Source: a virus
Lineage: Duplodnaviria; Heunggongvirae; Uroviricota; Caudoviricetes
Length of the DNA: 64,000 nucleotides
Reading direction: 5' to 3' (one strand)
Virus record (IMG/VR): IMGVR_UViG_646564533_000005
Below are positions 16,901 to 19,900 of this stretch, in pieces. The number at the start of each line of letters is the position of its first letter. Position 1 is the first letter of the stretch. Made by a program: the position numbers.

Positions 16901-19900
16901 TCATGTTGTTTCTGGTGGTGGCAGTGGATTTCACCGGGCGTCTGATGTCGGTACTGGCTGATGGTGTGATGAAGCGTGGGATTGTGACATTACGGTGGTC
17001 GGTGATGAAAAGAAACAGTCTGAATAATGCTTGATTTTTTTACTTACTGTTTATTAGAAATACTGCCGTATAGCGAATCCCATGTGTAAGAGGTTATCAG
17101 CAGGCTGGAATACTGGGGGGCGCGGATTCAGGTGCTGATACTGAATTCACCGGGGCGGCCACCGGACCATGCATATATCAAAGTTGTGATTCTACTTATC
17201 ATTTTCCTTGTGAGTTTTGGCTGCGCATGGCGCGGCCTTTTTTTACGATCTGCCACTGGCAGATGCTCATCCTGTGATTTTCTTCTGTTTCGGCCTTTTT
17301 TACTCTATTCCTGTGCATGGGAGAAATTCGATGTCGATTAATCGTTACGATATTGTGCGGGCAGCATCGCCATCAGATCTGGCGGACAAGCTCACGCAAA
17401 AACTGAAAGAAGGCTGGCAGCCGTTTGGTAGCCCTGTGGCCATAACTCCTTATACCCTGATGCAGGCGATTGCAGCAGAAGGTGATGTGGTGGTCAGTGG
17501 CACAACTGAGCCGGAGTGGTACTACGTGGTCGTGCTGGCCGGACAGTCCAATGCCATGTCTTATGGTGAGGGTATTCCTCTTCCTGATTCATATGATGCG
17601 CCTGATCCGCGTATTAAGCAGTTGGCACGTCGCAGTACGGTGACGCCTGGCGGAGAGGCATGTGTATTTAACGATGTGATCCCGGCAGATCATTGTCTGC
17701 ATGATGTGCAGGATATGAGTGTGTTCAGTCACCCTGAAGCAGATTTAAGCAAAGGTCAGTATGGGTGTGTCGGACAGGGCTTACATATCGCCAAACGTCT
17801 GCTGCCGTATATCCCAAAAAATGCCGGGATTCTGCTGGTTCCCTGCTCCCGTGGCGGTTCAGCATTTACAGCAGGGGCGGATGGTACATTCAGTGAAGCT
17901 ACGGGGGCCAGCCAGAACTCTGCGCGCTGGGGAGTGGGTAAGCCGTTATATCAGGATCTGATACTGCGTACAAAAGCGGCACTGGCGAAGAATCCTGAAA
18001 ATGTTCTGCTGGCGGTATGCTGGATGCAGGGTGAATTCGATATGACAAACGCTGGCTATGCTCAGCAGCCTGCAGCATTCCAGTCGATGGTGCAGCAGTT
18101 CCGTAGCGACCTTGCCGGTATGGCGGCGCAGTGTCATGGTGGAAGCGCTCAAAAAGTGCCGTGGATTTGTGGTGACACCACATACATCTGGAAACAGAAG
18201 TACGCCACACAATATGAGGCGGTGTATGGCGCTTATAAAGGAAAGGAAGCACAGAATATTTTCTTTGTTCCTTTTATGACAGGTGGCAGTGGTGAAAACA
18301 CGCCCACGAATGAGCCGACGGAAGATCCGGATATCGTGGCTGCCGGTTATTACGGGGCGGCATCCCGGACATCGGCCAACTGGACGTCAGCAGACCGTGC
18401 GAGCCATTTCAGTGCCTGGGCACGGCGTGGGATTATTGCAGACAGAATGGCCTCGGCTATCCTGTCGCAGGCAGGGCGCTCACAGGCATTTATTGCCGGT
18501 GTAAAACCGGAGAACACACCATCAGCAGGTGGCTCTACGTCGCCGGATGACTCATCCCTGGAATCGATATCGCTTCTGGCCTCCGCCGGCGATGTTGCTT
18601 CTCAGGGGTGGAGTATTACCGGGGGCAGCGTTCAGTTATCGGATGGCGTACTGAGAATTGTCAAAGAGAGCGGTAAAAGCTGGATACTATCGCATCCGGT
18701 GAAGAATGCATCCTCACTGCTGAGCCGGGGAGGGAAGCTGACCTGTAAGTTCCGTCTGACTGGTGCTCTGACAAACAACCAGTTTGGACTGGGGCTTTAT
18801 CTGTACACAGACGCTCCTGTTCCTGATGGTGTGACGATAACGGGGACTGGTGATCCGTTCCTGATGTCGTACTTTACGCAGACCACCGACGGCAAACTGA
18901 ATCTGATGCACCACAGGAAGTCAGGAAACACGAAGCTGGGGGAATTCGGGAACTACAGTAACGACTGGCAGGCGCTGGAGCTGGTGTTCACCGCCGGCAG
19001 TGCCACGGTTACTCCGAAACTGAATGGAGTGGCTGGCCCGGCATTCCAGGTTATAAAAGACAGTCTGACACTGGGACTGAATGCGCTGACGCTGACGGAT
19101 GTTACAAAAAATGCAGCGTATGGCGTTGAGATAGAAAGTCTGGTGCTGGAGATAAATGCACCGGCAGCATAATAAAAAAAGCCAGCGACTGACCTGAAAG
19201 AAGACGCTGGCTAAAAGGCCTTATATGTTTGTAGAGACTTATTTTTCACAGACAGCAATGATGCCTGTCAATATATTATCAATATGCGGATTGTTTCAGT
19301 TACAGATGCTTTATTAAGGAAAAAACAGCCAGCACTGACTTTCGGTGAAGAGGTGCTGGCTCAAAAGGATAGATGTACTTCACATGTTGCTTCTATATGG
19401 CGGTACATTTTCTGACAGACAGTGACGGATGTTGTCAAGATATTGTGTCATTTATAACCTGAATCAGGGAGGGAGCCGGAATGTTATCTGGCATTTTTAG
19501 CAGAGCCTGAATGCCATAATCACGGCTCCCGGTGTTGGCCGTCAGTGGGTGACACTGGCGGCTTTTTTGTTTTTCTTTACTTTCATTTTCTGTCGGCGGT
19601 GACGGAGACATACATCAGATGGAAAAAATCACAACAGGTGTGTCATACACCACGTCAGCGGTGGGGACGGGATACTGGTTACTGCAGCTGCTGGACAAAG
19701 TCTCTCCGTCCCAGTGGGTGGCAATAGGTGTGCTGGGAAGTCTGCTGTTTGGCCTGCTGACGTATCTGACAAATCTTTATTTCAAGATTAAAGAAGATAA
19801 GCGTAAGGCTGCGAGAGGTGAATAATGTCGCCGTCATTACGCAAGGCTGTTGCAGCTGCTATTGGTGGTGGGGCTGTTGCCATAGCGTCTGTGCTCATCA

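Follow-up and report, generated by a model that had tools for sequence, protein, structure and literature searches.

A probable diverged tandem pair of small-RNA genes, PasA and a shorter paralogue, between the esterase and holin genes of a lambdoid prophage

The imperfect repeat described here, which consists of an esterase-proximal unit 1 and a holin-proximal unit 2, very probably represents a diverged tandem pair of small RNA (sRNA) genes on the minus strand of the esterase–holin gap, with PasA as unit 2 and a shorter paralogue as unit 1. Each gene would consist of a sigma-70-type promoter, a short transcribed body and a terminator of the Rho-independent type. The promoter would combine a perfect TTGACA as its -35 with an A-rich -10 and an 18-bp spacer that ends in TGT, and the terminator a G+C-rich hairpin with a U-run. 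Both would be transcribed leftward, and both RNAs would bind Hfq and base-pair in trans. Published experiments on near-identical sequence have shown the expression, size, Hfq dependence and RIL-seq partners of PasA, as well as an Hfq-bound unit 1 RNA and a minus-strand 3' end at the unit 1 terminator. The elements of the locus are already known, and what is added here is modest: the tandem paralogy, the assignment of EcOnc51 and EcOnc52 to the downstream copy, and the promoter reading. In the literature, descriptions of the pasA locus do not present it as a diverged tandem pair.

The locus and its imperfect repeat

The repeat is hosted by a lambdoid prophage without stx, whose genes are ordered as Q antiterminator, tRNAs, DUF3927 gene, esterase, gap, holin, lysozyme, Rz/Rz1, PerC-family regulator, and terminase. 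It is located in the 446-bp gap from the esterase gene to the holin gene (Table 1), and the esterase stop codon adjoins the U-tract of the unit 1 terminator. Escherichia coli strain 2013C-4465 is 100% identical over a 551-bp query (gap plus flanks) to the window, by which we mean the whole 64-kb stretch of DNA analysed. The curated record of phage 434 is 98% identical at the gap, and the gap of prophage PP2 in EPEC strain E2348/69 is ~99% identical to that of the window.

Table 1. Features of the esterase–holin region, in window coordinates (minus-strand RNAs are given 5' to 3')
Feature	Position	Strand	Basis and remarks
SASA-family carbohydrate (sialate O-acetyl) esterase gene, nanS-p type	17331-19172	+	ORF list; RefSeq annotation of strain 2013C-4465; phage 434 annotation
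CTGGTGCTGGA site, 3' end of esterase mRNA	19140-19150	+	Read from sequence; MEME target motif table (PMC8550237 supplements)
Unit 1 Rho-independent terminator	19174-19212	-	Fold; phage 434 annotation
Unit 1 RNA, ~63 nt, probable shorter PasA/PasC paralogue	~19236->19174	-	EcOnc mapping; nhmmer E=2.6e-5; predicted 5' end
Putative unit 1 promoter	19242-19271	-	-35 TTGACA 19271-19266; 18-bp spacer ending TGT; -10 GAAAAA 19247-19242
PasA sRNA (unit 2), 85 nt	19403->19319	-	E2348/69 coordinates carried over by ~99% identical alignment
PasA (unit 2) terminator	19320-19361	-	Fold; phage 434 annotation; compensatory changes relative to PasC and unit 1
Putative PasA promoter	19409-19438	-	-35 TTGACA 19438-19433; 18-bp spacer ending TGT; -10 CAGAAA 19414-19409
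Intrinsic terminator for rightward transcription, directly upstream of holin gene, outside the repeat	19537-19573	+	Terminator scan; phage 434 annotation
Class II holin (S) gene, followed by lysozyme gene	19619-19825	+	ORF list; phage 434 and 2013C-4465 annotation

An earlier note on this DNA had described an imperfect tandem duplication of about 145 bp at 19175-19470. Local alignment and a profile search bore this out, and all motifs quoted in that note are present at the places given. The arms of hairpin 1 are GCCAGCG (19181-19187) and CGCTGGC (19205-19211), those of hairpin 2 are GCCAGCAC (19328-19335) and GTGCTGGC (19353-19360), and the blocks common to both units span 19245-19274 in unit 1 and 19410-19441 in unit 2. 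Local alignment of the two units gave a score of 31, compared with 15.9 +/- 2.3 for shuffled sequences (z=6.5; none of 2000 dinucleotide shuffles reached 31). The similarity extends beyond the hairpins, as the score without them was 27 (z=4.7; reached by three of 2000 shuffles). Furthermore, the 64-kb window contains two instances, and no more, of the pattern ACAGACAG-N2-A-N-G-N5-TGTCAA, against an expectation of zero. An nhmmer search with a unit-2-type profile, built from 11 distinct unit-2-type (PasA/PasC) loci only, matched unit 1 collinearly on the minus strand (19277-19171; profile positions 3-124; E=2.6e-5), and unit 1 was the only other significant match in the window. Tandem Repeats Finder reported no repeat, as divergence and indels between the copies put them beyond its reach. 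This blank result and the low identity would suit a resemblance that arose by chance, or one that reflects similar stems in two unrelated terminators, but both shuffling tests, the collinear full-length profile match and the doubly occurring pattern leave such an explanation practically no probability.

Functional strand, terminators, and putative promoters

On the plus strand, each hairpin is preceded by an A-run, which identifies the hairpins as Rho-independent terminators of the minus strand. RNA folding, which the earlier note had proposed as a check, gave minus-strand stem-loops that are followed by UUUUUUU in unit 1 and by UGUUUUUU in unit 2, and the hairpins fold in plus-strand RNA too. 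In unit 1, the stem pairs AGCCAGCG with CGCUGGCU (19212-19205 with 19187-19180) and is followed by seven U (19180-19174), while the PasA stem pairs AGCCAGCAC with GUGCUGGCU (19361-19353 with 19335-19327) and is followed by a G and six U. The annotation of phage 434 lists both hairpins as minus-strand terminators and a third hairpin, nearer the holin gene, as a plus-strand terminator. When 11 distinct sequences of PasA, PasC, and unit 1 were aligned, 90.9% of the cells in the 11-pair stem were found to pair, and two stem positions change on both sides in a compensatory manner (GC<->AU and CG<->UA). Five stem cells are G.U on the minus strand, corresponding to A.C mismatches in plus-strand RNA. 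The statement that each unit starts with a hairpin thus holds for the plus strand only; on the transcribed minus strand, the hairpin is the end of the unit.

The hairpins had also been proposed to act as duplicated terminators affecting read-through into lysis, that is, as plus-strand terminators or attenuators that set the read-through of late transcription into the lysis genes. Their position between the esterase and holin genes and their ability to fold in plus-strand RNA are in line with this model. However, the sequences that follow them on the plus strand, TAAAAGG and TCAAAAG, lack a U-tract, the terminator scan called no plus-strand terminator inside 19175-19470, and G.U pairs of the stems turn into A.C mismatches on that strand. 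Published experiments also place the RNAs on the minus strand. A candidate plus-strand terminator is found elsewhere (Table 1), with a hairpin at 19537-19563 that has an 11-bp stem with seven G-C pairs, a TTTTTTGTTTT tail, and a T-run in the terminator scan; gaps that carry no unit contain a similar hairpin and T-run in the same position. In addition, late transcription of lambdoid phages is Q-antiterminated and passes over intrinsic terminators, which further counts against the model. As neither hairpin is a plus-strand terminator, gating of read-through into lysis is not supported, and we regard this explanation as highly improbable. For annotation, the preferred reading means that the gap carries minus-strand sRNA genes, not late-operon terminators; these genes run convergently with the esterase gene and opposite to late transcription.

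A further alternative is that the region encodes small proteins. Open reading frames are indeed present on the plus strand (19225-19317 and 19284-19415) and on the minus strand (19611-19435), the last of which is annotated as a hypothetical protein in phage 2B8. In related loci, however, indels of 1, 2, and 4 nt are found at 19468-19476, and the A-run at 19320-19326 varies by a 1-nt indel. The coding interpretation was rejected because these indels would shift the frame, and we give it next to no credence.

The block ACAGACAG...TGTCAA, quoted in the earlier note as TTCACAGACAG...TGTCAATAT, is a promoter-like block read on the opposite strand. The spacers of both units end in CTGTCTGT, which supplies the TG of an extended -10, and both -10 hexamers are weak and have no T at -7. 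The predicted transcription starts are 19402/19403 for PasA and 19235/19236 for unit 1. These starts lie 1-4 nt from the reported PasA 5' end and the 5' edges of EcOnc51/52, ends that are approximate, as they derive from RNA-seq coverage and CRAC peak edges. We infer the promoters of both units, and likewise the independent transcription of unit 1, with the conserved geometry as the basis for the promoters. According to Zhu et al. (2026; bioRxiv 10.64898/2026.05.13.724894), the mature 5' end of PasA is a cleavage product of a longer transcript, so the true promoter could be located further upstream. The block 19404-19470 does not vary in any of the 17 distinct PasA/PasC-type gaps that were aligned, and substitutions are concentrated in the first ~40 nt of the RNA. 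Such a combination of a fixed block and a variable RNA start is to be expected where the promoter and terminator of an sRNA stay fixed and its 5' region evolves.

Other candidate elements in this block were rejected. Alternative promoters (TATAAA at 19456-19451, and TATCTT/TATATT overlapping TTGACA) fit the reported 5' ends less well, and a LexA box in the promoter spacer (CTGT/ACAG) has its half-sites in the wrong order, ACAG...CTGT rather than CTGT-N8-ACAG.

PasA and the RNA of unit 1

The suggestion in the earlier note that the repeat consists of small-RNA units agrees well with published data, with unit 2 matching validated PasA and unit 1 an RNA that was found bound to Hfq in EPEC and EHEC. 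Judged by its sequence, unit 2 is the sRNA PasA, short for pathogenicity-associated sRNA A, which was validated in EPEC E2348/69. In this strain, PasA is encoded on the minus strand of NC_011601 and runs, 5' to 3', from 743499 to 743415 in its major form of 85 nt and to 743264 in a minor form of 236 nt (PMC8550237, Table S6). Northern blots in E2348/69 showed that PasA is Hfq-dependent, and the probe, GCCAGCACTGACTTTCGGTGGAGAG (PMC8550237), matches window positions 19328-19352 with one mismatch. PasA of E2348/69 and unit 2 are alike in position, strand, terminator, and seed, with ~2 substitutions over the 85-nt RNA and no material difference. The site characteristic of the PasA/PasC family, in the gap that separates the sialate esterase gene from the holin/lysozyme operon and on the strand opposite to these genes, is found here as well, and unit 2 carries the identical seed, GCCAGCACCU, which overlaps the 5' arm of the terminator. 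For the host of the window, Hfq dependence and Hfq-assisted pairing would follow by analogy from the near-identical sequences of E2348/69 and Sakai. Through Hfq, PasA-type sRNAs tie EPEC and EHEC prophages to host and virulence networks.

PasA has 41 RIL-seq partners (PMC8550237), one of which is the 3' end of the neighbouring esterase mRNA. RIL-seq in E2348/69 found PasA joined to the esterase 3' end (743225-743255) in 34 chimeras (p=1.7e-26; PMC8550237), and the CTGGTGCTGGA site of the window contains an 8-nt core, GGTGCTGG, that is complementary to the PasA seed (CCAGCACC). When RNAduplex was run against the esterase 3' end, shuffled targets scored equally well or better in 331 of 1000 cases for PasA and in 124 of 1000 for unit 1. 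Since RNAduplex is uninformative here without accessibility terms, the proposed pairing of PasA with the esterase mRNA rests on the published RIL-seq data and the visible 8-nt complementarity.

The 236-nt read-through form of PasA ends at the unit 1 terminator, as the minor end at 743264 translates to window position ~19171. The interrupted U-tract of PasA fits the reported read-through: a leaky PasA terminator would allow part of the transcripts to reach the stronger terminator of unit 1 and thereby produce the 236-nt species. Published accounts of PasA treat the downstream unit merely as a "minor" 3' extension (PMC8550237; bioRxiv 10.64898/2026.05.13.724894). In the RIL-seq data of E2348/69, the unit 1 terminator corresponds to the minus-strand segment 743267-743294, named "pasA.E2348C_0688.IGR", for which five partners and a U-tract of 7 are recorded; its reads are RNA2 in 100% of 119+54 chimeric fragments (PMC8550237). 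To be always the second RNA is the signature of the 3' end of an Hfq-bound sRNA.

A second line of evidence comes from EHEC strain Sakai, where Hfq-CRAC revealed two peaks with predicted Rho-independent terminators, EcOnc51 in Sp12 and EcOnc52 in Sp4 (PMC4104026, Table S2), which Pearl Mizrahi et al. cited as PasA homologues (PMC8550237). As the EcOnc coordinates (PMC4104026) refer to an older version of the Sakai genome than NC_002695.2, the offset between them was calibrated. It is zero at 0.90 Mb and 1.18 Mb, where EcOnc13 and EcOnc05 lie inside STnc100 covariance-model matches. At 1.27 Mb and 1.94 Mb, comparison of EcOnc02 and EcOnc01a with the model matches of AsxR and AgvB gives ~+137 bp, as does the identical EcOnc10/EcOnc11 repeat at 2.23 Mb (summed offset 275). 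At 1.42 Mb, the Esr41 model match compared with EcOnc14 gives a looser value of +140 to +169 bp in the same direction. With these offsets, EcOnc52 corresponds to window positions 19162-19237 and EcOnc51 to 19165-19239, both on the minus strand, so EcOnc51 and EcOnc52 represent unit 1 and not PasA proper. Both peaks have a flagged terminator and lie, on the strand of unit 1, on sequence that differs from this unit solely by 2 nt inserted in the region of the U-tract; whereas they have been cited as PasA homologues, they correspond here to the downstream paralogue. The two peak areas are nearly equal (1.03 and 1.09 million), which fits reads split between two identical copies.

An alternative explanation is that unit 1 is a decayed, promoterless copy, which serves as a second, stronger terminator that halts PasA read-through before it runs antisense to the esterase gene; the RNA at unit 1 would then come from the 236-nt PasA isoform, either as its 3' tail or as a processed fragment. 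This would agree with the account of Pearl Mizrahi et al., who describe solely a "minor" 236-nt form of PasA (PMC8550237), with the RIL-seq counts of 119 for unit 1 and 4983 for PasA (~40x rarer in EPEC), with the unit 1 body being ~20 nt shorter, and with the interrupted U-tract of PasA. All unit 1 reads in EPEC could in fact derive from PasA read-through. On the other hand, unit 1 has kept the -35, the spacer length, and the TGT/-10 geometry despite its diverged flanks. The EcOnc51/52 peaks are discrete, their 5' edges fall on the predicted start, and the EcOnc list (PMC4104026, Table S2) has no peak for PasA-2, the PasA-type unit that lies upstream in Sp12. The unit 1 copy in Sakai Sp4 is moreover severed from everything upstream by IS629, inserted ~40 bp upstream of the -35, although CRAC reads cannot be assigned to this isolated copy because the two Sakai copies of unit 1 are identical. 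We consider a decayed copy unlikely and incline, if only slightly, to the reading that unit 1 is an independently transcribed and so far unnamed third member of the PasA/PasC family, which forms a true tandem sRNA pair with PasA, born by duplication of a PasC-like unit, and which keeps the ancestral terminator and a PasC-like seed.

In place of the PasA seed, unit 1 has GCCAGCGUCU, which is nearer to GCCAGCGUCC of PasC; unit 1 thus lacks the PasA seed. If unit 1 is expressed independently, as a second regulator with a seed different from that of PasA, target lists ascribed to "PasA" mix two RNAs, and surveys of Pas copy number and evolution overlook one family member.

Relation to other sRNAs, gap types, and distribution

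Going by the alignments and the profile match, unit 1 is homologous to the PasA/PasC family across promoter, body, and terminator. PasC, found in PP5 of E2348/69 and in phage 2B8, shows homology in promoter and body. Its terminator adjoins the esterase stop codon as that of unit 1 does and has the same GCCAGCG/CGCUGGC stem and UUUUUUUAUUAU tail. PasC differs in being the sole unit in its gap, and the body of unit 1 is ~20 nt shorter and largely different, with a different loop. Outside the family, OmrA/OmrB of E. coli and PrrF1/PrrF2 of Pseudomonas are likewise adjacent paralogues in the same orientation, with conserved 3'/terminator parts and diverged 5' parts. In the present pair, both units have a terminator and a conserved promoter geometry, and their predicted starts agree with reported ends. 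The independent promoters are proven in those systems but putative here, and the present pair is far more diverged and is carried by a prophage. AgvB/AsxR (Rfam RF02702/RF02703) are also prophage-encoded, Hfq-bound, and antisense to the late operon, with a conserved 3' end and a variable 5' end, but they are located between the moron/stx genes and the esterase gene and not after the latter. Within 19175-19470, no Rfam covariance model (AgvB, AsxR, STnc100, Esr41, and others) matched at E<=1, and the homologous gaps of Sakai gave no match either; PasA is absent from Rfam 15.

A survey of 80 IMG/VR loci encoding this holin, together with reference loci, revealed three gap forms. The first, of ~195 bp, carries no unit (for example, Stx2 phage JLK-2012), the second, of ~326 bp, has one unit of the PasC type (E2348/69 PP5 and phage 2B8), and the third, of ~481 bp, has two units (the window, E2348/69 PP2, phage 434, and Escherichia albertii). 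The 551-bp query is matched over its full length by H-19B and by Stx1a phages (96-98%), which hence have the two-unit gap too. A scan with a pattern of 16 specified bases yielded nearly exclusively chance matches in unrelated organisms, and an identical two-unit gap in E. albertii (locus L060). In the surveyed loci, a PasA-type terminator is always followed by unit 1, and single units always have a PasC-type terminator. The terminators of unit 1 and PasC have a common stem, tail, and position relative to the esterase stop codon. In one locus, L137, a PasA-like body is joined to a PasC terminator, which indicates that the modules recombine too. Because the two-unit loci are all closely alike, little about selection can be read from the near-invariance of unit 1.

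The simplest history that these gap forms suggest, and the most likely origin of the pair, is that a single PasC-like unit was duplicated. Of the two copies, the downstream one would have kept the old terminator and lost ~20 nt of its body, and the upstream one would have gained the PasA terminator and seed. Zhu et al. (2026; bioRxiv 10.64898/2026.05.13.724894) report a common ancestor for PasA and PasC. The same study states that Pas copies are not products of tandem duplication, the nearest pasA copies being 22 kb apart (bioRxiv 10.64898/2026.05.13.724894), and evidently did not recognise the diverged neighbour of PasA. If true, the tandem-pair reading contradicts this statement and reassigns EcOnc51/52 to the paralogue.

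No annotated features lie under unit 1 in RefSeq, nor under unit-2-type sequence, among the matches listed. Of the 5,426 complete E. coli genomes searched, 676 carry unit 1, with a total of 2,299 places, 100 of which are on plasmids as a remnant, and unit-2-type sequence is present in 691 of these genomes, at 2,853 places.

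Genes flanking the esterase gene

A PasD/STnc100-family sRNA gene is found just upstream of the nanS-p type esterase gene (Table), so that sRNA genes lie on either side of the latter. The same two-sided flanking has already been described in the enteropathogenic strain E2348/69. The Rfam STnc100 model matches the upstream gene with 34.2 bits (E=1.5e-4), which is under the gathering threshold of 47. Its 3' part, TTATCATTTTCCTTGTGAGTT.TGGCTGCG, matches PasD2 of E2348/69 and contains the complement of the PasD seed, whereas its 5' part has diverged. Further upstream, a third tRNA-like element is located between tRNA-Asn and tRNA-Gly. 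This element was not called by ARAGORN and is not annotated by RefSeq in the identical strain, E. coli 2013C-4465; it may represent a degenerate tRNA.

Features of the esterase-to-lysis region and its flanks
Feature	Window position	Strand	Basis or remarks
tRNA-Asn	16465-16539		5' neighbour of the tRNA-like element
Third tRNA-like element	16545-16617	+	Rfam, 47 bits
tRNA-Gly	16624-16698		3' neighbour of the tRNA-like element
PasD/STnc100-family sRNA gene	17038-17215	+	Rfam STnc100 match
Spacer of putative unit 1 promoter	19248-19265		Inverted repeat GACAG-N9-CTGTC
Spacer of putative unit 2 promoter	19415-19432		Inverted repeat GACA-N11-TGTC
Intrinsic terminator, predicted, strong	19537-19573	+	11-bp stem, then TTTTTTGTTTT
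PerC-family transcriptional regulator gene (Pch-like)	21248-21562	+	Annotation of identical strain; 3' of lysis cassette

Terminator and promoter spacers of the Pas gap

The Pas gap, which separates the esterase and holin genes, contains a predicted rightward terminator that precedes the holin start codon by 46 bp, and a comparable hairpin with a T-run is present in gaps that lack any Pas unit. This terminator presumably stops esterase transcripts in lysogens and is passed by Q-modified polymerase. On the minus strand, the spacers of both putative Pas promoters, those of unit 1 and of unit 2 (the PasA gene), have kept the octamer CTGTCTGT, and each spacer includes a short inverted repeat. Together, octamer and inverted repeat could form an operator for some regulator; a LexA box was rejected as the identity of the repeats.

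Module exchange and insertion sequences in related gaps

Locus L137 (IMG/VR contig IMGVR_UViG_2684622669_000004) has a mosaic single-unit gap, in which a PasA-like 5' body is joined to the terminator type of the single-unit relative PasC, showing that body and terminator/seed modules reassort. Insertion sequences also seem to enter the Pas gap frequently. In Sakai prophage Sp4 (L209, from position 631 onward), IS629 lies between unit 1 and the expected place of unit 2, some 40 bp 5' of the -35 element of unit 1, and in prophage PP5 of E2348/69, ISEc13 is found directly 3' of the plus-strand terminator.

For Sakai, Table S2 of Tree et al. (2014) gives coordinates that are shifted relative to the current RefSeq entry NC_002695.2. 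No shift (0 bp) is present until at least 1.18 Mb, but one of about +137 bp applies from 1.27 Mb on. EcOnc (Hfq-CRAC) peaks placed on NC_002695.2 uncorrected are therefore in error by roughly one Pas unit.

Unit 1 remnants on plasmids

In L005 (plasmid NZ_CP027601.1, 45036-45260), unit 1 alone is retained with a 3' fragment of the esterase gene, at 93% identity for the two, and this combination persists at about 100 other plasmid places, on large STEC plasmids. The remnant adjoins IS600 and the lactonase gene uilS. Its U-tract is interrupted, and the single substitution in its stem still allows pairing, as U.G, but only on the minus strand.
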